Part shown: positions 17,825 through 58,461 of the stretch, in pieces
How the letters are laid out: the number at the start of each line of letters is the position of its first letter
Numbering within the stretch: the stretch's first letter is position 1
Source: Candidatus Poribacteria bacterium
GTDB lineage: Bacteria > Poribacteria > WGA-4E > WGA-3G
DNA: 64,000 bases
Direction: 5' to 3'
NCBI GenBank assembly: GCA_965197475.1
Contig: CBDANF010000002.1
Span: 1,248,001 to 1,312,000 of the forward strand
Position numbers and translations under genes: made by a program
Notes under the pieces: model-generated
Told to the model about the DNA's origin: nothing
The model's input: the letters and a program-made list of their open reading frames with translations, nothing else
The model's database searches: none

Positions 17825-17847
17825 TAGTGAACATTTTTGAATCACAA

Positions 17848-17875: not shown

Positions 17876-17901
17876 ACTGAAATCCTAAGGAGGAATTTAA
17901 A

Positions 17902-36255: not shown

Positions 36256-39200
36256 CTACTGATTCGCTTGGACGATTTCCGCTTGTGTTTTACCGAAATA
36301 TGAGGCTACCTGAACGAGGTCACGGATATCCACCTTACCATCCATGTTCACATCGCCGGAAAGTTCTTCGCCAGATTCACCGAATTGGTTTGCAACCAAC
36401 ACTAAATCCTGAATATTCACCTTCCCATCGGCATTAAGGTCCCATGGTACTGGTTCTATCGTGGTTGCAGTTGTGATTTCAGCAGTTTTCGTGCTATCTC
36501 CTTTCGATGTAGCGATCACTTTAATTTCATATTCACCCAGTTTTGTGAAGAAATCACCCGCAGCTATAAATGTAACTTCAGCAGAAGCACCGGGAGCAAG
36601 TTCAATCTTCAACTGGCTTGTAGGAATTTCCTGATCGTCAGATTCACTGAACGATCCGAGCACGCTACCTTCAATCCCGATCTCTGCAGAAGAGCCAAGC
36701 ACTACCGTATCGTCGATATTACCGGTGTTTGTGACTGTGATCGTATAACTGACACCCGCAAACATATCCATCGTTGCGCCTTTCAGTTCGCCTTCATCTT
36801 GTAACATTACACCGTAGACCGGCGGAATAGTTGTAGCCGTTGTGATTTCAGCGGTTTTCGTGTTATCGCCTTGTGAGGTTGCCGTAACTTTAACTTCATA
36901 AGTACCCGCAATCGCAAGCGCATCGCCAGAAACTGTCAGTGTCACTTCTGCCGAAGCATTAGGTGCAAGCGAGACAGAGGTTTCACTTAAGGTAGCAGCA
37001 ACATCGCCTGATGTAGCTAAATCTATCATATCATCAGTGTTACCGGTGTTTGTGACTTTGAGCGTATAAGTAACACCTTCACTCGCATCTGCTGTTTCGG
37101 TTGTCAAATCGCCTACGCCTGCCAACGTAACACCATAAACAGGGAGAATAGTTGTCTTTGTTGAAACCTCAACTATTTTCGTATCATCGCCTTGTGAGGT
37201 TGCCATAACTTTAACTTCATAATCACCTGCTTTCGCAAGCGCATCACCAGAAATAGTTAATATAATTTCTGCTGAAGTGCCAGCGGCAAGCGAGACAGAG
37301 GTTTCACTTAAGGTCGCAGAAGCATCACCTGACGTGGCTAAATCTAAAACGTCATCTGTGTTGCCAGTGTTCGTAACTGCGATTGTATAACTAACACCTT
37401 CACCCGCATCTGCTGTTTCGGTTGTCAAATCGCCTACACCTACTAACGTAACATCATAAACAGGGAGAATAGTCGTGGTCGTTGAAATGTCCGCAGTCTT
37501 TGTGCCATCCCCTTGCGAAGTGGCTGTAACCTTGACTTCATAAGCTCCAGCAGTCGCAAGAACATCATCAGAAACAGTTAATATAATTTCTGCTGAAGTG
37601 CCAGCGGCAAGCGAGACAGAGGTTTCACTTAAGGTCGCAGAAGCATCACCTGACGTGGCTAAATCTAAAACGTCATCTGTGTTGCCAGTGTTCGTAACTG
37701 CGATTGTATAACTAACACCTTCACCCGCATCTGCTGTTTCGGTGGTCAAATCGCCTACGCCTGCTAACGTAATGCCATAAACCGGAATAAGCGTTGTGGT
37801 CGTAGTGATTTCAGCGGTTTCTGTGGTATCCCCTTGCGAAGTGGCTGTAACCTTGACTTCGTAATCCCCAAATATTGTTAAGGCACTACCAGAAATCGTC
37901 AATGTTACCTCCGCTGAAGCATTGGCACCAAGCGAGACAGCGGTTTGGCTTAATGTAGCAGTCACATCACCTGATGCTACTAAATCTATCACATCATCTG
38001 TGTTACCGATGTTCGAAACTGCGATCGTATAACTGACATCCTCACCCACATCAGATGTTTCGGTGGTCAAATCGCCTACACCTGCTAACGTAATGCCGTA
38101 AACAGGGAGAATAGAAATAGTCGTGGTCGTTGAAATCTCCGCGGTTTTTGTAGCATCTCCTTGTGAGGTGGCAGTAACTTTGACTTCATAAGCACCTGCA
38201 GTCGCAAGAACATCGTCAGAAACAGTTAATATAATTTCTGCGGAAGCACCCGCACCAAGCGAGACAGCGGTTTGGCTTAAGGTCGCAGAAGCATCACCTG
38301 AAGCACTCAAACTTATTGTATCGTTTGTGTTGCCGGTGTTTGTGACTCGGAGCGTATAACTCACCCCAGCACTTGCATCTATCGTTTCCTTTGTTAATCT
38401 GTCTACACCTGCTAAAGTAACACCGAAAACGGGAAGAATAGTTGTCTTGGTTGAAACCTCTGCCGTTTTTTCGGTATCGCCTTGTGAGGTTGCCGTAACT
38501 TTGACTTCGTAATCTCCGGCAATCGCAAGCGCATCGCCAGAAACTGTCAGTGTCACTTCTGCGGAAGCATTAGGTGCAAGTGATACAGAGGTTTCACTTA
38601 GGGTCGCTGCAACATCGCCTGATGTAGCTAAATCTATCATATCATCTGTGTTGCCGATGTTCGTCACTGCAAGCGTATAACTGACACCTTCACCCGCATC
38701 AGCTGTTTTAGTTGTCAACTCATCCACACCAGATAACGTAACACCGTAAACAGGGAGAATAGTTGTAGTCGTTGATACCTCAGAAGACTTTGTGTTATCT
38801 CCTTGCGAAGTCGCCGTAACTTTGACTTCGTAATCACCAGCAATCGCAAGCGCATCGCCAGAAACTGTCAGTGTCACTTCTGCCGAAATATTAGGTGCAA
38901 GCGAGACAGAGGTTTCACTTAAGGTAACAGCTACATCGCCTGATGTAGCTAAATCTATCATATCATCAGTGTTACCGGTGTTTGTGATTTTGAGCATATA
39001 ACTGACACCTTCACTCGCATCTGCTGTTTCGGTGATCAAATCTCCTACGCCTGCCAACGTAACACCGTAAACAGGGAGAATAGTTGTAGCCGTTGTGATT
39101 TCAGCGGTTTTCGTGTTATCGCCTTGTGAGGTTGCCGTAACTTTAACTTCATAAGTACCCGCAATCGCAAGCGCATCGCCAGAAACTGTCAGTGTCACTT

Positions 39201-42200
39201 CTGCCGAAGCATTAGGTGCAAGTGATACAGAGGTTTCACTTAGGGTAGCAGCTACATCGCCTGATGTAGCTAAATCTATCATATCATCAGTGTTTCCAAT
39301 GTTCGTGACGGTGAGCATATAACTGACACCTTCACCCGCATCAGATGTTTCGGTTGCCAAGTCTCCTACGCCTGCTAATGTAATACCGTAAACCGGAAGA
39401 ATAGTTGTCTTGGTTGAAACCTCTGCCATTTTTTCGGTATCGCCTTGTGAGGTTGCCGTAACTTTGACTTCGTAATCTCCGGCAGTTGCAAGCGCATCAC
39501 CAGAAATAGTTAATACGACTTCTGCGGAAGCATTAGGTGCAAGTGATATAGAGGTCTCACTTAAGGTAGCATCGTCAGTCGTAGTTAGATTGATCACATC
39601 ATCTGTGTTGCCGATGTTCGTCACTGCAAGCGTATAACTGACACCTTCACCCGCATCAGCTGTTTTAGTTGTCAACTCATCCACACCAGATAACGTAACA
39701 CCGTAAACAGGGAGAATAGTTGTAGTCGTTGATACCTCAGAAGACTTTGTGTTATTTCCTTGCGAAGTCGCCGTAACTTTGACTTCGTAATCACCAGCAA
39801 TCGCAAGCGCATCACCGGAAATCGTCAATGTTATTTCTGCTGAAGCACCCGCGGCAAGCGAGACTATGGTCTGACTTAATGTCGCTGCAATATCACCTGA
39901 CGTTGTTAAATCTATCACGTCATCTGTGTTACTAATATTTGTGATTTTGAGCGTATAACCGACACCTTTACCCGCATCAGATGTTTCAATGGTCAAGTCT
40001 CCTACGCCTGCTAACGTAACACCATAAACAGGGAGAATAGTTGTCTTTGTTGAAACCTCAACTATTTTCGTATCATCGCCTTGTGAGGTTGCCGTAACTT
40101 TGACTTCGTAATCTCCGGCAATCGCAAGCGCATCGCCAGAAACTGTCAGTGTCACTTCTGCCGAAGCATTAGGTGCAAGTGATACAGAGGTTTCACTTAG
40201 GGTAGCAGCTACATCGCCTGATGTAGCTAAATCTATCATATCATCTGTGTTTCCAATGTTCGTGACGGTGAGCATATAACTGACACCTTCACCCGCATCA
40301 GATGTTTCGGTTGCCAAGTCTCCTACGCCTGCTAATGTAATACCGTAAACCGGAAGAATAGTTGTCTTGGTTGAAACCTCTGCCATTTTTTCGGTATCGC
40401 CTTGTGAGGTTGCCGTAACTTTGACTTCGTAGTCACCTGCTTTCGCAAGCGCATCACCGGAAATAGTTAACATTACTTCTGCCGAAGCACCCGCAGCAAG
40501 TGATACAGAGGTCTCATTTAAACTCGCAGCAACATCACCTGATGTAGATAAATCTATCATATCATCAGTGTTACCGGTGTTCGTGACGGTGAGCATATAA
40601 CTGACACCTTCACCCGCATCAAATGTTTCAGTTGCCAAATCTCCTACGCCTACTAACGTAACACCATAAACAGGGAGAATAGTTGTCTTTGTTGAAACCT
40701 CTGCCATTTTTGTGTCATCGCCTTGTGAGGTTGCCGTAACTTTGACTTCGTAATCTCCAGCAATCGCAAGCGCATCACCGGAAATAGTTAACATTACTTC
40801 TGCCGAAGCACCCGCAGCAAGTGATACAGAAGTCTCATTTAAACTCGCAGCAACATCGCCTGATGTAGATAAATCTATCATATCATCAGTGTTACCGGTG
40901 TTTGTGACGGTGAGCGTATAAGTAACACCTTCACTCGCATCTGCTGTTTCGGTGATCAAATCTCCTACGCCTGCTAATGTAATACCGTAAACCGGAAGAA
41001 TAGTTGTCTTGGTTGAAACCTCTGCCATTTTTTCGGTATCGCCTTGTGAGGTTGCCGTAACTTTGACTTCGTAGTCACCTGCTTTCGCAAGAACATCACC
41101 GGAAACTGTCAATGTTACTTCTGCCGAAGCACCCGCAGCAAGTGATACAGAGGTCTCATTTAAACTCGCAGCAACATCACCTGATGTAGATAAATCTATC
41201 ATATCATCTGTGTTACCGGTGTTCGTGACGGTGAGCATATAACTGACACCTTCACCCGCATCAAATGTTTCAGTTGCCAAATCTCCTACGCCTACTAACG
41301 TAACACCATAAACAGGGAGAATAGTTGTCTTTGTTGAAACCTCTGCCATTTTTGTGTCATCGCCTTGTGAGGTTGCCGTAACTTTGACTTCGTAATCTCC
41401 AGCAATCGCAAGCGCATCACCGGAAATAGTTAACATTACTTCTGCCGAAGCACCCGCAGCAAGTGATACAGAAGTCTCATTTAAACTCGCAGCAACATCG
41501 CCTGATGTAGATAAATCTATCATATCATCAGTGTTACCGGTGTTTGTGACTTTGAGCGTATAAGCAACACCTTCACTTGCATCTGCTGTTTCGGTGGTCA
41601 AATCGCCTACACCTACTAACGTAACACCATAAACAGAGAGAATCGTCGTCGTGGTTAAAACATCTGCTGTTTTCATGGTATTACCTTGTGAAGTAGCTGT
41701 AACTTTGACTTTGTAATTCCCTGCTTTTGCTAAGGCACTACCAGAAACCGTCAATGTTACCTCCGCTGAAACACCCGCAGCAAGAGATATTGAGGTTCGG
41801 CTTAATGTAGCAGTTGCATCGCCTGATGTTGCTAAACGAATCGTATCGGTTGTGTTACCGGTGTTTGTGACTTTGAGCGTATAAGTGACACCTTCACTCG
41901 CATCCTCCGTTTTTTTAGTCAATGCGTCTATCCCTAACGTGACACCATAAACGGAGAGAATCGTGGTGGTAGTCGTGACTTCAGCAGTTTTCGTGCTATC
42001 TCCTCGCGAAGTTGCTTTTACTTTAACTGTATAATCGCCTGCTTTCGCAAGGGCAGTACCGGGAACTGTCAATGTTACATTCGCCGAAGCACCTGCAGCA
42101 AGCGATACAGAGGTCCGACTTAGTGATGCGCTGACACTGCCTGATGATGACAAACTAATCACATCATCTGTATTACCTATATTTGTAACCTTGATCGTAT

Positions 42201-42837
42201 AAGTAATTCCAGAACTTGCATCCGCCGTTCTCTTGGTCAATGCGCCTACACCCGCTAACGTAACACCGTAAACAGGGGGAACGTCCGATGTCGCTTTTTG
42301 GGTATAGATGTAATCACCTGAAGTTCCAAAATCGCTATTAGCGGCGTTTCCTGCGGCGTAAAACGTAATAGGTCCAATATCGGTAGCGGGGGCAGTCCAT
42401 TTAAAGGTCCACTGGTTTTTGTCTCTTGTTCCCTGTGCACTTCCAGCAGAGGTATGTTTAATATATTGTTTACTGTTTTCTTCTGATAATTGTGTATTCC
42501 CATCCGCTGCAGCAAAAGTGCCAGCGCGCGCGTTGTTCCTGTTCAGTGCTGTCATCTCAAATCCCCACTTACTCTGTCCAGCACGTGATAATTCGACAAC
42601 AATATCATACACCTCACCCGGCAAATAGTTCTCAGGAACTGTTAACATCAGTGAACCACCAGAGGCGTTAAGGGTATTGCCAACGTGGCATTGTGTACAG
42701 TTGCCTTCACCATGAGCACCTGTTAATTTATTTGGTGGACCATTACCAAAAGAAAAAGCAAATACACTACTATTGCTTGCAAGAAAAAAGAGTGCAAGCA
42801 TTGTCCAAATAGGAAAGATTTTTTTCAGATAATTCAA
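36256..42837 (-). CDS. Giant secreted protein: Reeler-like domain with CxxCH, 18 Ig-like (NEW3/CARDB-like) repeats, C-terminal dockerin
   Basis: TTG start after AAAGGAG; signal peptide; CTQCH, KWGFEMTA, WTFKWTAP..GPITFYAAGNAAN..GDYIY; ~107-aa repeats; WDLNADGKVNIQDLVLV and GDVNMDGKVDIRDLVQV. Confidence 0.85.
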   Translation of the reverse strand: MNYLKKIFPIWTMLALFFLASNSSVFAFSFGNGPPNKLTGAHGEGNCTQCHVGNTLNASGGSLMLTVPENYLPGEVYDIVVELSRAGQSKWGFEMTALNRNNARAGTFAAADGNTQLSEENSKQYIKHTSAGSAQGTRDKNQWTFKWTAPATDIGPITFYAAGNAANSDFGTSGDYIYTQKATSDVPPVYGVTLAGVGALTKRTADASSGITYTIKVTNIGNTDDVISLSSSGSVSASLSRTSVSLAAGASANVTLTVPGTALAKAGDYTVKVKATSRGDSTKTAEVTTTTTILSVYGVTLGIDALTKKTEDASEGVTYTLKVTNTGNTTDTIRLATSGDATATLSRTSISLAAGVSAEVTLTVSGSALAKAGNYKVKVTATSQGNTMKTADVLTTTTILSVYGVTLVGVGDLTTETADASEGVAYTLKVTNTGNTDDMIDLSTSGDVAASLNETSVSLAAGASAEVMLTISGDALAIAGDYEVKVTATSQGDDTKMAEVSTKTTILPVYGVTLVGVGDLATETFDAGEGVSYMLTVTNTGNTDDMIDLSTSGDVAASLNETSVSLAAGASAEVTLTVSGDVLAKAGDYEVKVTATSQGDTEKMAEVSTKTTILPVYGITLAGVGDLITETADASEGVTYTLTVTNTGNTDDMIDLSTSGDVAASLNETSVSLAAGASAEVMLTISGDALAIAGDYEVKVTATSQGDDTKMAEVSTKTTILPVYGVTLVGVGDLATETFDAGEGVSYMLTVTNTGNTDDMIDLSTSGDVAASLNETSVSLAAGASAEVMLTISGDALAKAGDYEVKVTATSQGDTEKMAEVSTKTTILPVYGITLAGVGDLATETSDAGEGVSYMLTVTNIGNTDDMIDLATSGDVAATLSETSVSLAPNASAEVTLTVSGDALAIAGDYEVKVTATSQGDDTKIVEVSTKTTILPVYGVTLAGVGDLTIETSDAGKGVGYTLKITNISNTDDVIDLTTSGDIAATLSQTIVSLAAGASAEITLTISGDALAIAGDYEVKVTATSQGNNTKSSEVSTTTTILPVYGVTLSGVDELTTKTADAGEGVSYTLAVTNIGNTDDVINLTTTDDATLSETSISLAPNASAEVVLTISGDALATAGDYEVKVTATSQGDTEKMAEVSTKTTILPVYGITLAGVGDLATETSDAGEGVSYMLTVTNIGNTDDMIDLATSGDVAATLSETSVSLAPNASAEVTLTVSGDALAIAGTYEVKVTATSQGDNTKTAEITTATTILPVYGVTLAGVGDLITETADASEGVSYMLKITNTGNTDDMIDLATSGDVAVTLSETSVSLAPNISAEVTLTVSGDALAIAGDYEVKVTATSQGDNTKSSEVSTTTTILPVYGVTLSGVDELTTKTADAGEGVSYTLAVTNIGNTDDMIDLATSGDVAATLSETSVSLAPNASAEVTLTVSGDALAIAGDYEVKVTATSQGDTEKTAEVSTKTTILPVFGVTLAGVDRLTKETIDASAGVSYTLRVTNTGNTNDTISLSASGDASATLSQTAVSLGAGASAEIILTVSDDVLATAGAYEVKVTATSQGDATKTAEISTTTTISILPVYGITLAGVGDLTTETSDVGEDVSYTIAVSNIGNTDDVIDLVASGDVTATLSQTAVSLGANASAEVTLTISGSALTIFGDYEVKVTATSQGDTTETAEITTTTTLIPVYGITLAGVGDLTTETADAGEGVSYTIAVTNTGNTDDVLDLATSGDASATLSETSVSLAAGTSAEIILTVSDDVLATAGAYEVKVTATSQGDGTKTADISTTTTILPVYDVTLVGVGDLTTETADAGEGVSYTIAVTNTGNTDDVLDLATSGDASATLSETSVSLAAGTSAEIILTISGDALAKAGDYEVKVMATSQGDDTKIVEVSTKTTILPVYGVTLAGVGDLTTETADASEGVTYTLKVTNTGNTDDMIDLATSGDVAATLSETSVSLAPNASAEVTLTVSGDALAIAGTYEVKVTATSQGDNTKTAEITTATTIPPVYGVMLQDEGELKGATMDMFAGVSYTITVTNTGNIDDTVVLGSSAEIGIEGSVLGSFSESDDQEIPTSQLKIELAPGASAEVTFIAAGDFFTKLGEYEIKVIATSKGDSTKTAEITTATTIEPVPWDLNADGKVNIQDLVLVANQFGESGEELSGDVNMDGKVDIRDLVQVASYFGKTQAEIVQANQ
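36450..42275 (-). repeat. Intragenic array of 18 repeats of about 321 bp
   Basis: 18 units counted by eye, each starting P/SV(Y/F)(G/D)(V/I)(T/M)L and containing a VTNTGN-like and a YEVKVTATSQGD-like motif; some units nearly identical in DNA; limits approximate. Confidence 0.9.
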
Positions 42838-42860
42838 AACGTCTCCTTTGCATATACGCG

Positions 42861-42934
42861 AAAAAACGCCCCCGCCGCCGACGCTAATCAACAGTAGATT
42901 CGCGCTCGGATAAACCGGCAGTCGGGGCGTTTTT
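42861..42934 (-). terminator. Intergenic stem-loop with U-tract between the cohesin and dockerin genes
   Basis: Minus strand: aaaaacgccccgactgccg ... cggcggcgggggcgtttttt, just before the RBS of the dockerin gene. Confidence 0.55.
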
Positions 42935-42958
42935 GTTATTGCGTTTTAGTTGCTAAAC

Positions 42959-45703
42959 CTACTTGAGGATAACCATGCGACGGGTAGCAGAGAAGTTCTC
43001 TGTTTGGAGGACATAGAAATAGATGCCACTCGAAACAGGTTCACCCGCGTCATTTTTACCATCCCAATAAGCTGCAGTCGAACTCGTCATATATAAACCA
43101 GTTGACTTATGACCTAAGCTTAGCGTCCGAACTGAATGACCGGAAACATCATAAATCTCAATCGTTACGTTGGTGTCACGACTCAGCTGATAAGGTATCC
43201 AAGTCTCAGGGTTGAAAGGATTCGGGAAGTTTTGTCCCAGAATCGTGTCTTTAGGACGCACATCGCCAACTCGCATCTGGACACTCATATAGGCGTTGTG
43301 GATATCCGTAGTTTGGACGGTGCGTTGGAACGGCCCGGACACAATAGTCCCGCGTTCGTCAAGGAGTGCGATCTCAACTTTATCGCCAGCTTCAACGACA
43401 CTCTTATAGTTCGAGTCTGCCCATACAGCAGTGACGCGTCCATCTTCACTGGTAACTTTTTGTGTTGCGACAACTCCTGTGCGGAGGTTTTTGGCAACCA
43501 TTGTGTAAGATGCACCGGTCTCTTTATCTTTCAAGGCACTTGTAATGATAAACGCCCAAGCATCTTTAGCAGTGGTAAGTTTTGGTGCAGCAGCGGCATC
43601 TTCCTCAGCCATTTCAGTCATTTCCGGCATTTCAGCTGGTGGGTTAGCCCACGCTGTACCACTAAATGTTACCGTTCCGCCAGTAGGTGTATTGACAATA
43701 TACCCTTTCCCACCTTCAATACCGAAATTGTAGCCACCTTCAATGCCAGCAACATATCCTACAAATTCTTGTGTTGCTGCGTTTAACTTGATGACAACTG
43801 TTGAACCTAACATCTCCGCAAGAGATTGTGCAGTATAGGGTTCTGTCGGCATCAACGGAACAGAGATCATGTTTAATCCCGCTTCAAATGTGACATCATA
43901 AGTAGGTAAAGGTGGTGGCATCGGTTCTTCAGGTAATACCGGTACTTCAACTACAGGTGTGATCATCAAAAGTGCTGTCGGTTCTGTCCAAGCAAATGCT
44001 TCGCCTACATCACCAACACCTTGGATACCAGCATGCGGTGTAATTACGCCACCTACTGTCGGCACACGTGCATTGCTACCCATCGGATCAGCATCCGCAG
44101 GTAAACCGACTGGACCAGGAATATCAGTCCCACGTTCGGTATTTTGTTCACTACCTGCGTCATAAGACCTCAATCCCAATGTTGTGGAAATAGGCATAGC
44201 AGCTGCATCATAGAGTGGTAAGTCAGCAACCCCGATAAATGCGTCATTTGTTGAGACCAACATTGTTGCAAGAGAGAGCGAAGAGTTCATGGCATCTGCT
44301 GTTAGACGAACGGTAACAGACGCGCTGGGATCAATAAGCCCCTCAGTGGCAGCAGCGTTTGCTCCTACAGCGGTGGCAAGTGCAGCAAGTCCTGAGGGAT
44401 CGCCATTTTCAGCAAGGAGGACAAGTGCCTCCGTAGCAGGTTGACCAACTTCGTATATCTTGGCACCAGCGGCGTGCGTTGAAAAGATCGGTGGTGAGAA
44501 GATTTGTCCACCCATACCATGCTCACCTGTGGTGAGGTTGGTCAGGGTAATCTCAAACATTTGGGGTTGGGGTTCGGGAACTATAATCGTTGTAGTCGTT
44601 GATACCGCAGCAGTTTTTTCCGCATCCCCTTGCGAAGTGGCGGTAACCGTAACTTCGTAAGCACCCGCTGTTGCTAAGGCATCATCGGAAATAGTCAATG
44701 TTACATCCGCTGAAGCACCAGCAGCAAGTGATATAGAGGTTTGATTTAATGTAGCAGTCGCATCGCCTGAAGTAGTCAGGCTTATTGTATCGTTTGTATT
44801 ACCGGTGTTTGTCACTCGTAGCATATAACTGACACCATCACCAGTATACACTGTTTCGGTTGTCAACTCACCCACACCAGATAACGATACACCGTAGACA
44901 GGGAGAATCGTTGTAGTCGTTGATACCACAGCAGTTTTTTCCGCATCCCCTTGTGAAGTGGCGGTAACCTTAACTTCGTAAGCACCCGCTGTTGCTAAGG
45001 CATCACCGGAAATAGTCAATGTTACATCCGCTGAAGCATCAGCAGCAAGTGATATAGAGGTTTGACTTAATGTAGCAGTCGCATCGCCTGAAGTAGCCAG
45101 GCTTATCGTATCGTCTGTATTACCGGTGTTTGTCACTCGTAGCGTATAACTGACACCATCTCCAGCATCCGCTGTTTCGGTTGTCAACTCACCCACACCA
45201 GATAACGATACACCGTGAACAGGGACAGTAACCGAACCATCTGCGGTTGTTACTTCCAATTCATCACTACCGGCATCGGAAATGAGAACATCTGTCAAGG
45301 TGATAGCGGACGCTTTTACCTCAACGACTTCAAACGTTACCGTAGCGAGTGTGCCGTCCCCATCCTGAGCAGCACCAAGCGTAATGAATTGGATGCTACT
45401 ATCAGAGGCAAGTCCACTAGGTGATACACTCGGGAAAGCTGCTAGATAATCCGCGTTGTAAGCACTGGAAATATATTTGAGCGCAGTTGGATCAAAGTTT
45501 AAGGTTACTTGGTAACCAGCAACATCTTCACCACCAGCAATATTAATATTCACGGTGAGTTGTTCACCTACCGCCGGGGATTCAATTGTAGCGGGATCAA
45601 CAGAAACGGTGGCTGCACCGTAACTCATCGCTGTCCATCCCAAACACATTACAACAGCCATCAAGAAAAAAAACATTTTCCTGTTAAAAAGCTGATTATT
45701 CAT
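42959..45703 (-). CDS. Secreted protein: cohesin, 2 Ig-like repeats, spondin_N domain, FlgD-Ig/T9SS-type-A-like C-terminal domain
   Basis: Signal peptide; GEQLTVNINI..DVAGYQVTLNFDPTALKY (cohesin); FEITLTNLT..FSPP..TH..LAENGD..TMLVSTNDAF..YDAGSEQNTE (spondin_N); LGQNFPNPFNPETWIPYQL..WDGKN..GE.VSSGIYFY. Confidence 0.85.
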   Translation of the reverse strand: MNNQLFNRKMFFFLMAVVMCLGWTAMSYGAATVSVDPATIESPAVGEQLTVNINIAGGEDVAGYQVTLNFDPTALKYISSAYNADYLAAFPSVSPSGLASDSSIQFITLGAAQDGDGTLATVTFEVVEVKASAITLTDVLISDAGSDELEVTTADGSVTVPVHGVSLSGVGELTTETADAGDGVSYTLRVTNTGNTDDTISLATSGDATATLSQTSISLAADASADVTLTISGDALATAGAYEVKVTATSQGDAEKTAVVSTTTTILPVYGVSLSGVGELTTETVYTGDGVSYMLRVTNTGNTNDTISLTTSGDATATLNQTSISLAAGASADVTLTISDDALATAGAYEVTVTATSQGDAEKTAAVSTTTTIIVPEPQPQMFEITLTNLTTGEHGMGGQIFSPPIFSTHAAGAKIYEVGQPATEALVLLAENGDPSGLAALATAVGANAAATEGLIDPSASVTVRLTADAMNSSLSLATMLVSTNDAFIGVADLPLYDAAAMPISTTLGLRSYDAGSEQNTERGTDIPGPVGLPADADPMGSNARVPTVGGVITPHAGIQGVGDVGEAFAWTEPTALLMITPVVEVPVLPEEPMPPPLPTYDVTFEAGLNMISVPLMPTEPYTAQSLAEMLGSTVVIKLNAATQEFVGYVAGIEGGYNFGIEGGKGYIVNTPTGGTVTFSGTAWANPPAEMPEMTEMAEEDAAAAPKLTTAKDAWAFIITSALKDKETGASYTMVAKNLRTGVVATQKVTSEDGRVTAVWADSNYKSVVEAGDKVEIALLDERGTIVSGPFQRTVQTTDIHNAYMSVQMRVGDVRPKDTILGQNFPNPFNPETWIPYQLSRDTNVTIEIYDVSGHSVRTLSLGHKSTGLYMTSSTAAYWDGKNDAGEPVSSGIYFYVLQTENFSATRRMVILK

Positions 45704-46014
45704 ATAAACACTCCTTACTAAATTCATTTACTATTGTGACGTTTTCTCTACCTTTCGGTACAGGTTTAAATTTCTCGCTTGAGGAGAGGTTTCACAAGAA
45801 ACCTAAGAGGCATCATTCGTATCAACGTATCACCACTCTATGCACAAAGGCAAATCGCTCAAACGTAGTTATACACTTAACAGATACGTTTATTCTAACT
45901 TAAAAACGTTGTCAAGTCAAATTAGATTTCAAATAGAACAATTCGGTAAATTGGAACAATCTATTCTTAATTATACTACAAATAACAGAAATAACGCAAA
46001 TTAAAAAACATCTC

Positions 46015-47093: not shown

Positions 47094-48527
47094 ATGGAAA
47101 AGTTTACGAAACCCGCCGGAACAAACGATTTTCTAGCCGAACAGATGGTTCAACGAAATTTCGTTGAAAATATCGTTCGTGAAGTATATGAAAGTTACGG
47201 GTACGCACAGATTCAGACACCACTGTTTGAATCCTTCGCACTTTTATCCGCACAATCCGGCGAAGAGATACGTCACAAAATGTTTACGTTTGTTGGTCCA
47301 GATAGGGTAGATTATGCACTGAGACCTGAACTCACCGCACCCGTTTGTCGAATTATTGCAAATGGTGACCTACAACATTTGCCTTATCCTTATAAACTCT
47401 ATTACATCGGACAGTGTGTGCGTCAGGAACCGAAAACTGACAATCCAGAGGTGAGGCGCGAATTTCGACAGGCAGGAGTAGAACTGATCGGACCTGCATC
47501 AACACTTGCAGACGCAGAGATTATTACACTACCGGTTCGGATTCTTGAAAAGCTCAATATTTCGCAGACGAAGTTGAAAATCGGCAATACTGGTATCTTC
47601 CGTGAGATTTTTAAACAGGTTGCACTTGATCCGAAAGATCATAGTGAAGTGATATTGGACATTGATCACCTTGCGCGGCTGCAGGTGGAAAGCCAACTTT
47701 TGGACATGGAGACGCTTCGCGATGAACTGAATATGTTGCGGCGTTTGCAAGGAACTGACTACCAAGGTGACCACAAGATTGAGACATCTACTATTCAGGA
47801 GTTAACAGAAAACAACACCACTACTTGGACAGAGAAGTTACCGATGATTGCTGAAGAAACCTATAAAGCGAGATGGCACAGATATTTCAATATATCAGAG
47901 GAGATAGCGCAGCGTTGTATTGATGTCTCAAAGATCAGCGGTAATAAGGATGTTGTCATGGCAGCGTGGGACACGTGTCTCGGTGATACTGCACAGGAAG
48001 TTCGCGAAGAGCTGCGGACACTTTGCGAATGTTTGGAAAACTACGAAATTAACGATTTTGAAATTAATCTGGGTATCACGCGCGGGTTTGATTTCTATAC
48101 TGGAACAGTTTTTCAGATTGAGTTACAGGATAAGAATCTTCCAATTTGCGGCGGTGGAAGATACGACCATTTGATCGAAAGTTTTGGCGGACCATCACTA
48201 CCGGGGGCAGGATTTGCATTCCAATTTGATTCACTGATGGAGGCATTTGCTGAAACACAGCGCGAACCTATTCAAGCGAAAAAGGATTACTTTGTCGCAA
48301 CAACTTCTGCTGATCTTATCCCTGAGGCACAACGTCTTGCTGAAACATTGAGACGATCCGGCAAGATCGTAGAAGTAGATCTAATGGATCGCGACCTGCA
48401 AGCACAGCATGACTACGCTGCGCTTGCAAATTACGATTATCTGGTCCGCTTAGCCTCAAATGAACCGATGTGTAAAACGGATCTGAAAACTGGTAACACA
48501 GAAGAGGTTACTATCAAAGACCTTTAA
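47094..48527 (+). CDS. hisZ: ATP phosphoribosyltransferase regulatory subunit (HisRS-like)
   Basis: KPAGTND, ALRPELTAP, REFRQAGVELIG, RGFDFYTG, GGGRYD; directly upstream of hisG, with a second HisRS-like gene after it. Confidence 0.8.
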   Translation: MEKFTKPAGTNDFLAEQMVQRNFVENIVREVYESYGYAQIQTPLFESFALLSAQSGEEIRHKMFTFVGPDRVDYALRPELTAPVCRIIANGDLQHLPYPYKLYYIGQCVRQEPKTDNPEVRREFRQAGVELIGPASTLADAEIITLPVRILEKLNISQTKLKIGNTGIFREIFKQVALDPKDHSEVILDIDHLARLQVESQLLDMETLRDELNMLRRLQGTDYQGDHKIETSTIQELTENNTTTWTEKLPMIAEETYKARWHRYFNISEEIAQRCIDVSKISGNKDVVMAAWDTCLGDTAQEVREELRTLCECLENYEINDFEINLGITRGFDFYTGTVFQIELQDKNLPICGGGRYDHLIESFGGPSLPGAGFAFQFDSLMEAFAETQREPIQAKKDYFVATTSADLIPEAQRLAETLRRSGKIVEVDLMDRDLQAQHDYAALANYDYLVRLASNEPMCKTDLKTGNTEEVTIKDL

Positions 48528-48583
48528 AATGGATGTAGACGAATACGATAAACCTTCCTATATCAAAAGCGAGGAAACCGATT

Positions 48584-49354
48584 ATGGAAACAGAAAGGAT
48601 ATTGAATCTACTTTTGCCGAAAGGCACCATACAGTCTGAAACACTTGAGACGTTTCAGCGCGCAGGCTACGAATTAAACGGATACAAGTCAACCGATCGG
48701 TCTTATCGTGCTACCTTTCAAAACGATAGCGAATTCCAGATAAAGATTTCTCGTCCGCAAGAGATACCGGTTTATGTTGGCATGGACAATTTTTATGATT
48801 TGGGAATCACTGGACAAGATTGGGTTGAAGAGACCGATGCGGATGTTGAGGAGATGCTGCCGTTGGACTATGGGTTTGTTAGTATTGTTCTTGCTGTTCG
48901 CGAGGAACGGAAGGACATCAATACTTTCACGGATTTGGTGAACCTTGCGGATAGAAACATTCGCATTTCTACGGAATATCTGAACATCGCGGAGAAATAT
49001 ATCCTTGAAAAGACAGAAAACCGCGTAGCACCTGCGATTTTAACCCCGTGGAAGCGATTGAACACCCTCGGCACTTATCAGTCCCCCATCACACTTATGC
49101 TATCTTTCGGCGCAACAGAGGGGAAACCACCTGAAGAAGCGGATGCTATCATTGATAATTGTAGTTCAGCGCGCACGTTGCAGGCAAACCATCTCAAGAT
49201 AATTGAAGTGCTACGAGAATCTGAATCTACTCTGATTGCAAACCCGAAGTCTCTCAAGGAACCCTGGAAACGCGAAAAAATTGATGAACTGAAGCAGACG
49301 TTAGAAAAAGGATTGCGGAGACGGCGAAGTCAAGCACTTCCCGGACACATTTAA
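48584..49354 (+). CDS. hisG: ATP phosphoribosyltransferase
   Basis: LPKG, RPQEIPVYV, DLGITGQDWVEE, STEY, SFGATE and ADAIID motifs. Confidence 0.9.
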   Translation: METERILNLLLPKGTIQSETLETFQRAGYELNGYKSTDRSYRATFQNDSEFQIKISRPQEIPVYVGMDNFYDLGITGQDWVEETDADVEEMLPLDYGFVSIVLAVREERKDINTFTDLVNLADRNIRISTEYLNIAEKYILEKTENRVAPAILTPWKRLNTLGTYQSPITLMLSFGATEGKPPEEADAIIDNCSSARTLQANHLKIIEVLRESESTLIANPKSLKEPWKREKIDELKQTLEKGLRRRRSQALPGHI

Positions 49355-49365
49355 GGAGCAAAATT

Positions 49366-50694
49366 ATGGCGACCATTAAACCGCGCGTCCCCCGTGGTAT
49401 GAGAGATATATTGCCTGAACAGATGATTCGCAGACAATATGTTATAGATGTTATTCGCGATGTATTTGAAGAATTTGGGTTTGAACCGTTACAGACTCCC
49501 GCGCTCGAATTATCCGAAGTGCTCACAGGTAAATATGGACCGGACGCAGAAAAACTAATCTACCAAGCTGGACATACCGGTGGTAAGGAGGACATTTCGC
49601 TTCGGTACGATCTTTCTGTCCCGCTCTGCCGTGTTGTAGCGATGTATCCACAACTGCCGAAACCGTTTAAGCGGTATCAAATTGATCCGGTGTGGCGCGC
49701 AGAACGTCCACAAAAGGGACGTTATCGCCAATTTTTCCAATGTGATGCAGATACCGTCGGAAGCGATAGTATGTTAGCTGACGCGGAAAATGTTAATCTC
49801 ATTTATCAAGTCCTTTTCCGTCTCAGTTTTTATGGCTTTGAGATTAATATCAACAACCGGAAACTGATTACTGGGATAGGGGAATTCGCTGGCGTGCCTG
49901 CTGAACAACTTGGCGGCCTCTATCGCGCTATTGATAAGTTGGATAAGATAGGATTGGATGGTGTTACCACAGAATTACGGGAAAATGAAATACCAGAAGA
50001 TGTTATTGAAAAATTGCTTACGCTGCTACAGATTGAAGGTGATGCGGCAACGGTGCTCAGTGAAATGAATGAACAACTTGGTGATTTAGAAATTGCTCGT
50101 GAAGGCATCGCTGAATTGGATGAGTTAATCCGTTATCTCATGATTTTTGGCGTTCCAGAGGAGATGTACAGGGTGAACGTTGCTATGGTGCGAGGTTTGG
50201 AATACTACACCGGACCGATATATGAAACGGTTGTCAAAAAACCGAAGATCGGCAGCATCACAGGTGGTGGTAGATATGATGAACTCATCGGAAGTTTTAG
50301 CAAACAGAGTTTCCCCGCAACAGGTACAAGTTTCGGCTTTGAGCGGATTATTGACGTAATGGAAGAATTTGATATGTTTCCATCTACTGTAGGGAAAACA
50401 GTGACACAGGTATTAATGACCGTGTTTGATGACGAGCTGATGGAAGAATCCCTTAAATTGGCAACACTGTTACGTCAAGGCGGCATCCGAACAGAGGTCT
50501 ATATTCGTCCTGATCGACTGAGTACACAAATGAAATATGCTGATGCTAAAGGAATCCCTTACGCTGTTATCCTCGGATCGGATGAGTTAGCTGCAGGTAA
50601 CGCTGCTGTCCGGGATTTGGCAAGTAGGGAACAGGAAGATGTTCCATTGGATAAGGTTGTTGAGCAGATTAAGCAGTGGATAGAGAAAACGTAA
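49366..50694 (+). CDS. hisS: Histidine--tRNA ligase
   Basis: PRGMRD, LRYDLSVP, VWRAERPQKGRYRQF.QCD, RGLEYYTG, GGGRYD, G.SFG.ER; anticodon-binding domain. Confidence 0.95.
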   Translation: MATIKPRVPRGMRDILPEQMIRRQYVIDVIRDVFEEFGFEPLQTPALELSEVLTGKYGPDAEKLIYQAGHTGGKEDISLRYDLSVPLCRVVAMYPQLPKPFKRYQIDPVWRAERPQKGRYRQFFQCDADTVGSDSMLADAENVNLIYQVLFRLSFYGFEININNRKLITGIGEFAGVPAEQLGGLYRAIDKLDKIGLDGVTTELRENEIPEDVIEKLLTLLQIEGDAATVLSEMNEQLGDLEIAREGIAELDELIRYLMIFGVPEEMYRVNVAMVRGLEYYTGPIYETVVKKPKIGSITGGGRYDELIGSFSKQSFPATGTSFGFERIIDVMEEFDMFPSTVGKTVTQVLMTVFDDELMEESLKLATLLRQGGIRTEVYIRPDRLSTQMKYADAKGIPYAVILGSDELAAGNAAVRDLASREQEDVPLDKVVEQIKQWIEKT

Positions 50695-54756: not shown

Positions 54757-55530
54757 ATGCTTACGCAAAAACAGAAGTTAGAATTCCATGAAAATGGTTA
54801 TATTAAAGTCTCTGGTGTTGTGCCAAAGTTAATGATAGATGCTGCTCGTAAAATCATTAATCATTCTATCGGTGCTGTGGGACTGCACGAAGACGACTTA
54901 GAAAAGTTTCGGGCACAATCGTATTGTAACGAAATTAGGAACGCCCCGCAAATTGTGGATATTTTCCATAAAACACCTATCCATAACATTGCTGAATCGA
55001 TGCTGGGTGAAGGCAACGTGCAAGTCCCAGGTTCAGGACAGATAGCACTCCGATTCCCGATGCCGTTAGACCGCGATGCGAATGAACCACGCGGACATCT
55101 GGATGGATTGGGAAGTGGGACAAATGGAATGGCAAAAGGTGTTTACCGTCGCGGTTTTTCTGCGTTAGCGGTTGTGTATCTGGCAGATGTGCCTGAACCG
55201 TATAGCGGTAACTTTACGGTGTGGCCCAAAACGCACAGTTTTTTCGCTGACTATTTCAAAAAGGAAGGGCATGAGATTTTGGCAAACGGAATGCCGCGTC
55301 CGGAACTTCCTGAAGGTCCCACCCAGATAATCGGCAAAGCGGGAGATGTGGTTTTGACACATCACCAGATAGTCCACTCAGCAGCACCGAATGCATCGGC
55401 TGACATTCGTTACGCTGTAATCTTCCGTGTGCGGCATGTGGATTGTGCAGAAAACGGGTATGATGGTTACACCGATATCTGGCGTGAATGGCCTGGTATA
55501 CAGGAAGCGATAGAAAACGGAAATGCCTAA
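54757..55530 (+). CDS. Phytanoyl-CoA dioxygenase (PhyH) family protein
   Basis: FHENGYI, HLD, GNFTVWPKTH, AGDVVL.H..VHS..PN...R. Confidence 0.88.
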   Translation: MLTQKQKLEFHENGYIKVSGVVPKLMIDAARKIINHSIGAVGLHEDDLEKFRAQSYCNEIRNAPQIVDIFHKTPIHNIAESMLGEGNVQVPGSGQIALRFPMPLDRDANEPRGHLDGLGSGTNGMAKGVYRRGFSALAVVYLADVPEPYSGNFTVWPKTHSFFADYFKKEGHEILANGMPRPELPEGPTQIIGKAGDVVLTHHQIVHSAAPNASADIRYAVIFRVRHVDCAENGYDGYTDIWREWPGIQEAIENGNA

Positions 55531-55540
55531 AAGAAATTAA

Positions 55541-55577
55541 GAAACGGGTGATTCGATTAAATCACCCGTTTGCTTTT
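55541..55577. terminator. Hairpin terminator between convergent genes
   Basis: aaacgggtgatt-cgatta-aatcacccgttt followed by T-rich sequence. Confidence 0.75.
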
Positions 55578-56395
55578 TACTTTGTGCTCTTGATTTGTGC
55601 CCATGTAATGCTCAATTTGTCCACAGGTTCGACTGCAAATGGATCCCCATTGGATAAATAGAGGTTTTCCACCTCATCTGCAGAAAGTGCTCGGTGGAAC
55701 ATTAGGAACTCATCCATCAATCCTTTGAATGTCCACGACGCGGGAGTCGCGACACCATTAAATGCTGTGGCTTCAGAACCAACCCCGATGAATCCGTACC
55801 GTTGTAATTTCGGTCCGATCATTTTATTAGTAGTAGCTGTGGCTTCCTCTACATCCACTTTACCATCAACATAGATCCGCTTCATATCGGCATTAAAAAT
55901 TGCCACGACATGATGCCATTGATCGTCCGTAACTTTAACATTACCATGCCAATCCTTTATAGGACAACAGACATCAAAAGCGACAAAGTCCGTCTGATCG
56001 ATTGCAACATCTCCAGCTGCAAAACGGAAATAGTCGCTGCGATCCCAAGAGGCAATCATCCCTCTATCAACAGTCTTAATCCATACCGCGATGCTAAGTT
56101 CCGGTATACCTTCGGTATAATTGAGATTTCGCACTGAGATATATTCGGTTGCCCCACCAGGAAATTCCATACATTCGTTAACTTTGCCATCATTCACAAT
56201 ATTGAGATTGCTGCCGTGGAGGAAACCGTCATTTCCGGACCCATCCAAGATATCTTCACCCTTAAGGGAGGCAGCGTCAAAACTATAATAGATGACCAGT
56301 TCTTTATCACTTATACCCCGCGCGTGGACAGTCAACGTTGGTACTGTTAGAATTAGTGTTAGCGTCAATAGTTGGAAAATCAAAGAGGTTTTCAT
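55577..56395 (-). CDS. Secreted LamG domain protein
   Basis: Signal peptide, YYSFD, QWHHVV, GLMDEF; tail AVEPVDKLSITWAQIK. Confidence 0.88.
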   Translation of the reverse strand: MKTSLIFQLLTLTLILTVPTLTVHARGISDKELVIYYSFDAASLKGEDILDGSGNDGFLHGSNLNIVNDGKVNECMEFPGGATEYISVRNLNYTEGIPELSIAVWIKTVDRGMIASWDRSDYFRFAAGDVAIDQTDFVAFDVCCPIKDWHGNVKVTDDQWHHVVAIFNADMKRIYVDGKVDVEEATATTNKMIGPKLQRYGFIGVGSEATAFNGVATPASWTFKGLMDEFLMFHRALSADEVENLYLSNGDPFAVEPVDKLSITWAQIKSTK

Positions 56396-56418
56396 TTTAG
56401 GTCTCCTTAATTATTTTA

Positions 56419-56660
56419 CTAAAGTTTGGACAATTTACGCGTTATTCATGTAGACTTCTCAAAGGTAGTGGCTGTTCTCGCCAAAAACCTGTTATATTTT
56501 CTGCGATTTTGCTGATTGGAAGAACTCCCTGAAAAATACATCTTGGCATGGCAGTCCGAGCAGAGCGACAGATGTATAGAAGATAATTAGGTTAATGTCT
56601 AAGATGTTTCCATTTTACCCTCTACACATTGAAGTCCTTTAAAATTTGTCCAAACTTTAG
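56419..56660. mobile_element. MITE of the CTA(T/A)AGTTTGGACAA family
   Basis: ctaaagtttggacaa ... ttgtccaaactttag; internal REP-like gcagtccgagcagagcgacagatgtatag. Confidence 0.7.
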
Positions 56661-56681
56661 TAGGTGGTAACTTGGGTTATT

Positions 56682-57506
56682 TTATTTCGTACTCTTAATC
56701 TTTCCCCATGTGATGCTCAATTTGTCCGCAGGTTCAACGGCAAGCGGATTCCCAGACGCATTAGCAAGACGTTCAACCTCTTCTGCAGAAATTGCTCGGT
56801 GGAACAGAAGGAATTCATCCATCAACCCATTGAAAGCCCAATTGGGTCCTACGACCGCATCAAAAGCTGCAGCTTCTGAACCAATTCCGATGAATCCGAA
56901 CCGTGCTGTCTTCGGTCCTATCAATTTAGTGGCTGTGTCCGTGGCTGCCTCCGCATCCAATTCACCATCAACGTATATCCGTTTCATTTCAGCATCAAAG
57001 GTTGCCACGACATGATGCTATTCGTCATCAGCAACATCAATCTTACCAAACCAATCCTTTATAGGGCAACAAACATCAAAAGCAACAAAGGTTGTGGCTG
57101 CGTTCCCACCCATGTCATCGCCTACAGCAAAACGGAAGAATTCACTCCGATCCCAAGAGGCAATCAAACCTCTTTGCGGTGTCTTTACCCATACCGCGAG
57201 CGTCAGTTCCGGAATACCTTCAACATATTGGAGATTACGTACCGAAATATAATCGGATTGAGCCCCTGGAAACTCCATACATTCGTTAACTTTGCCCTCC
57301 ACAATCTTGAGACTGTTACCTTTGAGCAAACCGTGATTCTCATTTCCGGATCCGTCCAAGACATCTCCATCTTTAAGGGTATCCTCGTCAAAGCTATAAT
57401 AGATGACAAGTTCATCTGCACTGATACCCTGTGCATGACCAGTCAACGCTGGGACTGTTAGTATTAGTGTTAACGTTAAAAGTTTGAAAATAAAAGCGGT
57501 TCTCAT
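56682..57506 (-). pseudogene. LamG domain protein interrupted by TAG at 57018-57020
   Basis: Reads DVADDE*HHVVATF; the adjacent paralogue has TDDQWHHVVAIF, so TGG>TAG; both halves are in the same frame. Confidence 0.88.
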
Positions 57507-57522
57507 TATAGTACTCCTTTTA

Positions 57523-57554
57523 TAGTATGCGCTTTTACTAGTATGCGCTTTTAC
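57523..57554. repeat. 16-bp tandem duplication upstream of the LamG pseudogene
   Basis: tagtatgcgcttttac twice. Confidence 0.85.
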
Positions 57555-57576
57555 AAGCTCGTAAATTATAGTTAGC

Positions 57577-58407
57577 CTAAGAATATCCTCCTACACCCAA
57601 CAACATCCGTTCCTCCATATCTGCTTCTTTGAGAAAGGTTTGGGTTAACCCGTCTGCAGGTGGATCGCCGCCGTGTGGCGACCTTCACAGCCACGTCGGC
57701 GTATAACCAAGAATTAACATTCTCCGCTTTGAGCGAAGTGTTAGCAAAGCACGATGCCAGAGATTACCGTGGATAAGTACGGCACCGCCAGATCTCACTT
57801 GAAGTGGTACTTCGCCATCTATCGGTTTATATGTACTAGGCGTTGCCTTGTCCAACCAGTTGTGAGAACCGGGGACAACAACCGCACCAGTATCTTCGTT
57901 TAAATCATCAAGATAGATAAGACAATCGATACAGTGTGGTCGTGAAAACCATGGTGGTATCGGGTTAGAGACAACACGCATGTGTTGATGCCAGGGCGTT
58001 TGGTGTTGTCTGTCATCGCCAGGATAAGTGATTCGTGCGCTCAATCCGCGTAGTCGAACAAGCGGTCCCATCATTGCCCGTACTATTGATAAAACCGGTT
58101 GAAATTTCAGAAGTTCAAGGAATGCTTCGTCCTTATCCATCAAATGACGCGGAATGAACCCCCAACTACGTTTGGAGGCAAGAGCGTTATCACGTTTTTC
58201 CCATTCTCGCGCTTCCAATCGGTCAAGGGCATCTCTTAGTTTTTGAAGTGCCTCTCCCTGAAAGAGTCCTTCTCAAATAAGGTAACCGGTCTCAGCAAAT
58301 GTTTGCAACTCTTCGCGGGTAGCGTGCACTTTCACGTCCCAATGTTGTCCGGTTTCACCCGGGTTATGGACATTTAGTACTTCGTAATGAAGTGTGTGTT
58401 GTTCCAT
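57577..58407 (-). pseudogene. PhyH family dioxygenase with two in-frame TGA codons
   Basis: One frame reads FAETGYLI*EGLFQGEAL... (58273) and GYTPTWL*RSPHGGDPP...GGYS (57685); contains WHQH, VVPGSH and LWHR. Confidence 0.82.
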
Positions 58408-58461
58408 AATTGTCTCGCTATGTGCAGTTTCTGTTGACGTGGCAAGGCACCTCATATTGTG

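Follow-up and report, generated by a model that had tools for sequence, protein, structure and literature searches.

What does a sponge-dwelling bacterium do with the two domain families of animal F-spondin, Reeler and spondin, when they sit on two neighbouring genes that also encode a dockerin and a cohesin? The genes in question lie within a 64,000-nucleotide (nt) stretch of Candidatus Poribacteria DNA (hereafter the window), and a preliminary description had proposed that their products dock into a self-assembling mimic of host matrix. Our analysis points instead to a two-gene cassette for surface display that is conserved in one family of Poribacteria. In this cassette, an anchor protein would hold a docked cargo protein with a haem-type tip, a reading that we adopt with moderate confidence. 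Homologues are named Candidatus Poribacteria, and one of them comes from a record of the sponge Geodia barretti.

The pair consists of two co-oriented minus-strand open reading frames (ORFs), at 42959-45727 (922 amino acids, aa) and 36256-42891 (2211 aa). Because orthologue alignments begin there, the likely starts are ATG 45703 and TTG 42837: the orthologue consensus and the database protein P0003 (914 aa) both begin at the second Met of the anchor frame, and the N-termini of cargo orthologues read M(N/S)YLKN. The end coordinate 45703 given previously for the locus was therefore correct, as it coincides with the orthologue-supported start of the anchor.

42959..45703, minus strand: anchor gene, 914 aa from the ATG at 45703 (ORF open from 45727)
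36256..42837, minus strand: cargo gene, 2193 aa from the TTG at 42837 (MNYLKK...), with AAGGAG at 42843-42848

The domain anatomy of the preliminary description is confirmed in every particular. From N- to C-terminus, the anchor comprises a signal peptide, a cohesin, two immunoglobulin (Ig)-like repeats, a spondin domain, two beta-sandwich spacers and a C-terminal sorting domain (CTD) of the type IX secretion system (T9SS) kind, while the cargo comprises a signal peptide, a Reeler-fold tip, 18 Ig-like repeats and a type I dockerin. The hidden Markov model (HMM) scans suggested in that description placed Reeler, Spond_N, Cohesin and Dockerin_1 over their cut-offs and matched the Ig repeats as FixG_C/NPCBM_assoc; the cohesin, spondin_N and sorting-like domains upstream and the Reeler-like tip and dockerin downstream all exceed curated Pfam/NCBIfam cut-offs, and 18 repeat starts were counted in the stalk. 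These adjacent, co-oriented and secreted proteins do have an Ig-like repeat in common, with 71-76% protein identity between the two repeats of the anchor and pairs of stalk repeats, and the expectation that the pair is non-cellulolytic was borne out, glycoside hydrolases being absent from both genes.

The cassette reading is carried by the linkage of the two genes, which we surveyed across 121 poribacterial genomes including the window's own (G000; the others bear labels of the form G###, with families f# and genera g#). The tip domain is present in 81 of the 121 genomes, once in each (without G000: f1 79/81, f2 0/9, f3 0/19, f4 1/3, others 0/8), and the spondin domain in 90 (f1 74/81, f2 3/9, f3 11/19, f8 1/1). 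Spondin lies upstream of the tip on the same strand in 67 of the 80 other tip genomes, at a gap of 1091-4588 nt (median 1260), and in three further genomes (G090, G114, G025) a cohesin-CTD gene without a Pfam Spond_N match lies directly upstream of the cargo; one such spondin-less anchor aligns over cohesin, spacers and CTD at 61-70% identity, its spacer domains still present. Nine tip genomes break at a contig end that leaves the neighbour unreadable and were excluded, giving 71 readable genomes. In 70 of these, from at least five genera, a cohesin-CTD gene stands directly upstream of the Reeler-dockerin gene, so that the linkage on which the original proposal had been made to depend does hold in other genomes. 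In G081, from another family, the tip occurs in a different protein architecture with no cohesin neighbour. As the genomes are related, we regard this linkage as one conserved ancestral arrangement and not as 70 independent events. The flanks are also conserved, with a cupin gene upstream and a GFO/IDH/MocA gene downstream, and the f1 genomes lacking the tip (G023 and G073, each in 300 or more contigs) have no spondin match either.

Because the cohesin-CTD and Reeler-dockerin genes stay linked, docking of the cargo dockerin on the anchor cohesin is well supported and is the best reading of the pair; the contact is predicted from linkage and module logic, and we judge it fairly probable. The module logic comes from a genome-wide inventory made with local HMMs over all stop-to-stop frames, which found a dockerin in 62 ORFs, a cohesin in 16 and a sorting tail in 53, combined as follows.

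Dockerin, cohesin and CTD: 8 ORFs
Dockerin and cohesin: 3 ORFs
Dockerin and CTD: 18 ORFs
Dockerin only: 33 ORFs, of which 29, the cargo included, end in the dockerin
Cohesin and CTD without dockerin: 3 ORFs (the present anchor, the paralogous one and a third)
Cohesin only: 2 ORFs

One of only three cohesin-CTD ORFs without a dockerin thus adjoins the cargo, and the paralogous anchor likewise has a small dockerin-ended gene downstream. This paralogous cassette (contig C3:3600435-3604089, equal to L142:1436-5090) consists of an 894-aa ORF with cohesin, spondin and CTD and, downstream of it, a 268-aa gene whose product has a DUF3108-like domain and ends in a dockerin; about 11 genomes of genus g1 contain a second spondin match, which suggests that this cassette, too, is conserved. 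A Pfam search of the genome gave 20 cohesin and 64 dockerin matches, the cargo's own dockerin not being among the 64, and ranked the anchor cohesin as the top cohesin of the genome (52.9 bits). With a local HMM, the cohesins of the anchor and its paralogue group together at 195 and 201 bits, apart from all other cohesins, which score 132 bits or less.

The features of the anchor are as follows.

45617..45703, minus strand: Sec-type signal peptide (MNNQLFNRK...AMSYG / AATVSV), read from the sequence, with a predicted cleavage site
45224..45595, minus strand: cohesin module, aa 45-168 (Pfam PF00963)
44582..45223, minus strand: two Ig-like repeats of FixG_C/NPCBM_assoc type, common to the cargo stalk (Pfam, Tandem Repeats Finder)
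43973..44560, minus strand: spondin domain, aa 390-585 (NF038123 and Spond_N PF06468)
43271..43903, minus strand: two conserved beta-sandwich spacers, aa 609-689 and 725-819 (AlphaFold2, AF2, model; predicted local distance difference test score, pLDDT, 69.9)
42962..43228, minus strand: T9SS-type C-terminal sorting domain, aa 834-922 (TIGR04183, PF18962, FlgD_ig)

The N-terminus of the anchor is conserved across 28 aligned orthologues. Its cohesin reaches 47.2 bits against a cut-off of 24.1 over profile positions 5-139 of 139, and Tandem Repeats Finder reports its Ig repeats as 2.0 copies with 95% matches. The spondin domain scores 31.6 bits with Spond_N (cut-off 24) and 121.1 with NF038123 (cut-off 40, positions 2-199 of 206), and a single-sequence search of the PDB with it found mindin as best match at an E value of only 0.25. 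The sorting tail, over residues 834-920 of 922, matches TIGR04183 at 32.6 bits against 23, PF18962 (Por_Secre_tail) at 27.3 against 27 and FlgD_ig at 33.6, and a Foldseek search with the spacer model (pLDDT 69.9) returned only generic FN3-, pilin- and transthyretin-like matches. Judged from its residues, the spondin domain is probably Ca-binding and C2-like. Its YDAGSE stretch aligns with the YDAGTD of mindin, D523 and A524 being invariant and D495 nearly so among the 28 orthologues; the equivalent of PSPDW reads STNDA, its Asp nearly invariant. In F-spondin, the FS domain has DAGTD and PSPDW stretches and three acidic Ca ligands, according to excerpts of PMC3117680.

The cargo presents the second F-spondin-like domain at its N-terminus, on a long stalk.

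42757..42837, minus strand: Sec-type signal peptide, read from the sequence and conserved in orthologues, predicted to be cleaved after VFA
42280..42756, minus strand: tip domain of Reeler fold, NCBIfam choice-of-anchor V (PF02014, NF041895, AF2 model)
42685..42699, minus strand: CTQCH motif, C65-H69, residues 20-24 of the predicted mature protein
36454..42279, minus strand: stalk of 18 Ig-like repeats, 17 recent and one divergent dockerin-proximal unit (motif count, Tandem Repeats Finder)
36259..36453, minus strand: type I dockerin, both Ca-binding repeats intact, DLNADGKVNIQD / DVNMDGKVDIRD (PF00404)

The tip is a true Reeler-fold relative that carries a bacterial N-terminal CXXCH. It is single-copy in the genome (NF041895, 117.8 bits) and scores 25.0 bits with Reeler (PF02014, cut-off 21) and 110.8 with NF041895 (choice_anch_V, cut-off 42, full length); its neighbours in a protein atlas are bacterial clusters annotated "Reeler domain-containing". 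Foldseek with the AF2 model (pLDDT 92.2) placed the human F-spondin reeler domain at the top (E 2.9e-7, about 22% identity), and VIA-align superposed 127 residues of that domain at Z 12.0 and a root-mean-square deviation (rmsd) of 3.2. The family profile likewise found Spondin-1, the human F-spondin reeler, as its best PDB match (E 1.6e-5), aligned after the CXXCH segment, so the Reeler identity proposed for the tip stands by both profile and fold. Single-sequence PDB searches gave chance matches only (best E 0.015, to designed trefoils; PmoF1 at E 0.93). The model also fits cytochrome f at Z 10.1-11.6 over 134-138 residues (rmsd about 3.0), the alignments covering residues 19-21 to 175 of the model and 1-3 to about 247 of the cytochrome chain and so including the N-terminal segment that holds the motif, and the copper-binding YcnI at Z 9.2. 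Since this likeness is one of fold only and membership by sequence was not found, we say that the tip resembles cytochrome f and not that it belongs with it.

The motif itself is well kept. Among 120 poribacterial homologues it reads C-x2-CH in 109 and C-x3-CH in 11, and among 141 remote representatives the spacing is x2 in 119, with the second Cys and the His invariant in a 78-sequence family alignment. A CXXCH in an exported protein stands here beside three cytochrome c assembly matches in the genome (PF01578, over cut-off). The 75 remote multidomain relatives are fused for the most part to sorting domains, dockerins or Ig and FG-GAP modules, and six of them have redox fusions (GSDH in three, Cytochrom_C in one, SoxA/TsdA-CCP in one, plastocyanin-type Copper-bind in one), a count without a background control; redox or metal proteins make up 8 of 107 ORFs flanking remote tip genes, again without a background rate. 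From motif, fold and fusions, the most likely role of the C-x2-CH motif is haem attachment.

The tip family is large, with 6479 clusters at E <= 1e-3 and 3856 at E <= 1e-10. A degenerate-motif scan of species genomes, biased to TGAPGE..C..CH members (52 of the 141 representatives), recovered at least 122 tip loci, mostly in free-living phyla; the 80 listed fall mainly in Bacteroidota and Acidobacteriota, with others in Zixibacteria, Eisenbacteria, Ignavibacteria and other metagenome-assembled genomes (MAGs). In three of these loci (L012, L024 and L028, from Bacteroidota and Pyrinomonadaceae MAGs), a gene for a DUF5777 membrane beta-barrel adjoins the choice-of-anchor V gene; outside Poribacteria, the tip family may thus be accompanied repeatedly by this barrel, the three cases having no background rate.

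That breadth bears on the idea with which the locus was first described, namely that Reeler and spondin domains are presented together to sponge matrix or sponge cells as a self-assembling imitation of F-spondin. Part of this holds: the Reeler and spondin calls are both real, and the bacterium does live in sponges, judging from the Geodia barretti homologue record and sponge metatranscriptome contigs. In F-spondin, reelin_N and FS together make up a single fragment that binds membranes, and heparin is a ligand of reelin_N (PMC3117680, excerpts); the single Ig domain in the stalk of genus g2 would bring the two domains close together. Against it, bacterial models fit both domains better than animal-seeded Pfam models do (110.8 versus 25 bits for the tip, 121.1 versus 31.6 for the spondin domain), and the tip family numbers 6479 clusters, with members picked up by the motif scan in Bacteroidota, Acidobacteriota, Zixibacteria, Ignavibacteria and other MAGs. 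Nor do the two domains keep company elsewhere. Spond_N occurs in none of the 75 multidomain tip relatives; Pfam found no spondin or cohesin in the 107 flanking ORFs, which come from 59 of 122 loci of at least 9 kb (shorter loci, ORFs above 1500 aa and the duplicate L061 left out); and in 122 scanned loci, of at least 122 that exist, our local HMMs detected the tip in all and no spondin, cohesin or dockerin of these types, although the spondin HMM does detect a poribacterial domain of 32% identity at E 1.9e-12. Within Poribacteria, the spondin domain was lost in three genomes that kept the pair, the paralogous spondin anchor pairs with a DUF3108-like cargo, and the pairing arose once, so that coincidence is possible. 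F-spondin, where it aligns with the tip, has nothing that corresponds to the invariant CXXCH, and in G000 spondin and tip would stand some 20 Ig domains apart, the two being adjacent in F-spondin (PMC3117680, excerpts). What survives of the host-matrix idea is that both domain families are real; they are of bacterial type, spondin is dispensable, and the two do not co-occur elsewhere. We therefore treat the F-spondin analogy as a true resemblance of domain families but weakly as a guide to function, and consider the mimic improbable.

Under the preferred cassette reading, the anchor would be exported by Sec and then sorted by its T9SS-type CTD to the cell surface, its predicted location; anchoring by the CTD would therefore leave the N-terminal cohesin distal to the cell, above spondin and spacers. 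The C-terminal dockerin of the cargo would plug Ca-dependently into that cohesin, and docking would hold the Reeler-fold tip at the end of a stalk of variable length. There the tip, with covalent haem on C-x2-CH, would serve as an extracellular redox or ligand-binding module and not as a copy of animal matrix. The dockerin itself scores 31.1 bits with PF00404 (Dockerin_1, cut-off 22.9), and both D-x-N-x-D-G-x-V-(N/D)-x-x-D loops are intact, with D/N/G positions invariant in 33 orthologues. The stalk varies most. Tip and dockerin are constant in every homologue among those listed, while stalks range from about 353 to 1923 aa, with open frames up to 2991 aa, corresponding to 1 to about 25 Ig domains across lineages against 18 here. 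Genus g2 cargo genes have open frames of 368-527 aa with one Ig domain, and genus g1 reaches 2991 aa. In the window, the 18 repeat starts are spaced 105-109 aa apart, and Tandem Repeats Finder gives a 321-nt unit in 16.8 copies with 80% matches. Because the single Ig of short orthologues corresponds to the divergent, dockerin-proximal 18th unit, we read the other 17 as a recent expansion.

Several of our observations weigh against this cassette reading, some on docking, some on the tip and some on export and expression. On docking, an alternative is that the anchor belongs to no private pair but is one of a few scaffoldins for many dockerin-only proteins, with the cargo free to dock on any cohesin and adjacency reflecting shared history or regulation. 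The genome has 62 dockerin ORFs, 33 of them dockerin-only, against 16 cohesin ORFs and three cohesin-CTD anchors without dockerin; partners may therefore be shared, and the pairing may not be exclusive. The cargo dockerin is also of a common contact type, positions 10-11 of its repeats (IQ and IR) being among the commonest in the genome (39 repeats with IQ, nine with IR), and it forms no private clade: a local HMM of it gives 106 bits for itself and 60-79 for other dockerins, and the dockerin of the paralogous cassette ranks about 30th. In the tip-less families f2 and f3, moreover, an N-terminal cohesin, spondin and the same kind of tail occur together in 6/6 examined loci, two of them with two spondin domains, and by this sequence evidence the cohesin-spondin-CTD anchor is older than the anchor-cargo pair. 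A general anchor nevertheless sits poorly with a neighbour that at least five genera have kept (70 of 71 readable genomes), and with a paralogous anchor that has a dockerin gene of its own directly downstream. We regard it as rather unlikely, and it would in any case still allow the pair to bind.

For the tip, the contrary evidence favours a haem-free adhesin head, in which the Cys pair would form a disulphide loop, the His would serve for metal or ligand, and the whole cargo would be a variable-length adhesin of what we take to be the 'periscope' kind. The haem-less F-spondin reeler fits the tip fold as well as cytochrome f does, and the family profile found no cytochrome f sequence in the PDB at E values up to 10. 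The Cys spacing varies: among the 141 remote representatives it is x3 in eight and x4 in eight (16 in all), and no motif was found within the first 120 residues in six. Copper-binding YcnI fits at Z 9.2, and PmoF1 was matched weakly by sequence (E 0.93); the fusion partners of most relatives are Ig, FG-GAP or sorting domains and not redox modules; and long stalks of variable length (1 to about 25 repeats) are seen more typically in adhesins. Yet an invariant Cys-His preceded by another Cys at x2-x4 constitutes the signature of haem c, the N-terminal segment holding the motif is where the cytochrome f alignments begin, and some relatives are fused to domains of cytochrome c, cupredoxin or PQQ-type dehydrogenase. 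A haem-free head is thus possible, and we place it below the haem-bearing tip.

With regard to export, the cargo lacks a sorting domain that would account for its passage through the outer membrane. ORFs resembling T9SS components, which speak for sorting of the anchor, do exist but score below threshold, with three PorU-like ORFs at 255-279 bits (cut-off 420), a PorV-like ORF at 83 (cut-off 250) and a SprA-like 2194-aa ORF in five collinear pieces, the best at 66 (cut-off 200; SprA_N 21 against 27); the same models exceeded curated cut-offs in none of 14 control genomes, so that these scores come with no positive control. The three PorU-like peptidase ORFs (1749-2196 aa) each have a sorting tail of their own, and two PorV-like ORFs directly follow the sorting tails of giant ORFs, at C3:3991275 (4851-aa frame) and C3:1413490 (5213-aa frame).

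Transcription signals at the locus comprise two candidates.

45892..45920, minus strand: promoter-like site TTGACT-17-TAGAAT upstream of the anchor gene, a consensus match only (10/12 positions)
42857..42934, minus strand: intergenic terminator-like hairpin with U-run (A-tract, G+C stem, U-tract; -41.8 kcal/mol, z -1.84)

Promoter-like sites in the region number six, fewer than in shuffled controls (mean 16.1). The hairpin lies between the anchor stop codon and the cargo ribosome-binding site and could give rise to different levels of anchor and cargo protein; a simple terminator scan did not call it, the loop being too long. In sponge metatranscriptome contigs from four runs of one study, the 3' part of the anchor appears in 4/4 and the tip region in 2/4, and no RNA contig covers 42588-42895 or bridges both genes, a contig gap that is no proof of separate transcripts. 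DNA carry-over is not excluded for these contigs, and their depths cannot rank genes. A search of the window against Rfam matched no RNA family.

The genes around the pair are ordinary chromosomal ones (sulfatase, GFO/IDH/MocA, xylose-isomerase-like, Laminin_G_3, PhyH, TPR and FG-GAP/ASPIC). Farther off, a type I restriction-modification (R-M) set at 2938-16651 includes hsdR (2938-5403), hsdS (8801-10210) and hsdM (14210-15727). Behind hsdR the set is interrupted by a Schlafen/AlbA_2-HATPase_c_4 gene (5455-6936), and it is closed off by an IS1-family transposase (15887-16651, minus strand); the region looks like a defence island. The 4 kb that separate hsdS from hsdM are occupied by eleven small co-oriented plus-strand ORFs (60-144 aa; 10358-14232), none of which matches Pfam, at a G+C of 0.36-0.41, against the window's usual 0.42-0.47, and two further family-less ORFs lie at 7255-8788. 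On the plus strand at 47094-50694, a short HisG gene (48584-49354) is flanked by two histidyl-tRNA-synthetase-like genes: a first of 477 aa that gave no match to an anticodon-binding domain and resembles the regulatory HisZ, and a second of 442 aa that has HGTP_anticodon and resembles HisS. Small Laminin_G_3 (concanavalin-like) proteins, about 255-272 aa long, occur four times across the window, at 17015-18717, 55577-56395 and 63080-63847, and a cluster of PhyH dioxygenase genes occupies 54757-59250.

If the cassette works as we propose, the plug-and-socket that is textbook knowledge for cellulose-degrading Gram-positive bacteria has been kept as a linked pair by a family of diderm sponge symbionts, where it holds a non-enzymatic head far from the cell. 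This raises the questions of how a dockerin-only protein leaves a diderm cell, whether a large and unstudied surface family carries haem, and what role bacterial spondin domains play. As the cargo has no sorting domain, we suggest that it may exit by riding on its cohesin-bearing, T9SS-sorted neighbour, in which case the dockerin would be a hitch-hiking export tag. A broader version of this idea, to which we give little weight, would make choice-of-anchor V domains unrecognised surface-displayed c-type cytochromes with a cytochrome-f-like beta-sandwich, found in thousands of bacterial lineages, with animal Reelers as their haem-less relatives and the cargo exported on its anchor. A caution also follows: "eukaryote-like" domains of symbionts should not be read as host mimicry where bacterial families fit better.

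Literature searches, judged by titles and the starts of abstracts, gave nothing relevant on Poribacteria with cohesin/dockerin or spondin, nor on sponge symbionts with dockerins; likewise, nothing relevant came up on haem binding by bacterial Reeler domains or on a link between cytochrome f and reelin-N. No function is on record for choice-of-anchor V, and among the matches listed a search on choice-of-anchor returned nothing on the domain. Excerpts of the F-spondin paper PMC3117680 leave bacteria unmentioned.

Several known systems can nonetheless be set beside the pair. Like the type I cohesin-dockerin systems of Clostridia, it combines a cell-anchored, cohesin-bearing protein with a secreted partner that ends in a duplicated, Ca-binding dockerin, in a genome with few anchors and many dockerin proteins. 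Unlike them, it has no glycoside hydrolase, sits in a diderm host, uses a T9SS-type CTD instead of SLH domains or sortase, and bears as cargo a CXXCH domain of Reeler fold mounted on a stalk of Ig repeats; many other proteins of the genome also combine cohesin and dockerin in one chain (eight with a CTD, three without). Peer et al. reportedly described non-cellulosomal cohesin and dockerin modules across the three domains of life in 2009. Animal F-spondin (reelin_N, FS and thrombospondin repeats; PDB 2zot, 2zou, 3coo) shares the same two domain families and the DAG(S/T)(D/E) Ca-site stretch. It differs in that the poribacterial system is split over two polypeptides with another domain order along the assembly, reads STNDA for PSPDW, and has on its tip an N-terminal CXXCH outside the aligned part; no thrombospondin repeat family is among the Pfam matches of either protein, so that the one-chain F-spondin architecture was not found. 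With the large domain of cytochrome f (1q90, 1ctm, 1ci3), the tip has in common a beta-sandwich of similar topology and a CXXCH about 20 residues from the mature N-terminus, at what we take to be positions 21-25 in cytochrome f, but it lacks the small domain, the membrane anchor and a b6f operon. Finally, relatives in NF041895 (choice-of-anchor V) likewise follow a TGAPGE..C..CH head with alternative anchors, among them PEP-CTERM-like tails, T9SS domains and dockerins; what sets the poribacterial form apart is that its choice is the dockerin, with the putative cognate cohesin gene kept next door.

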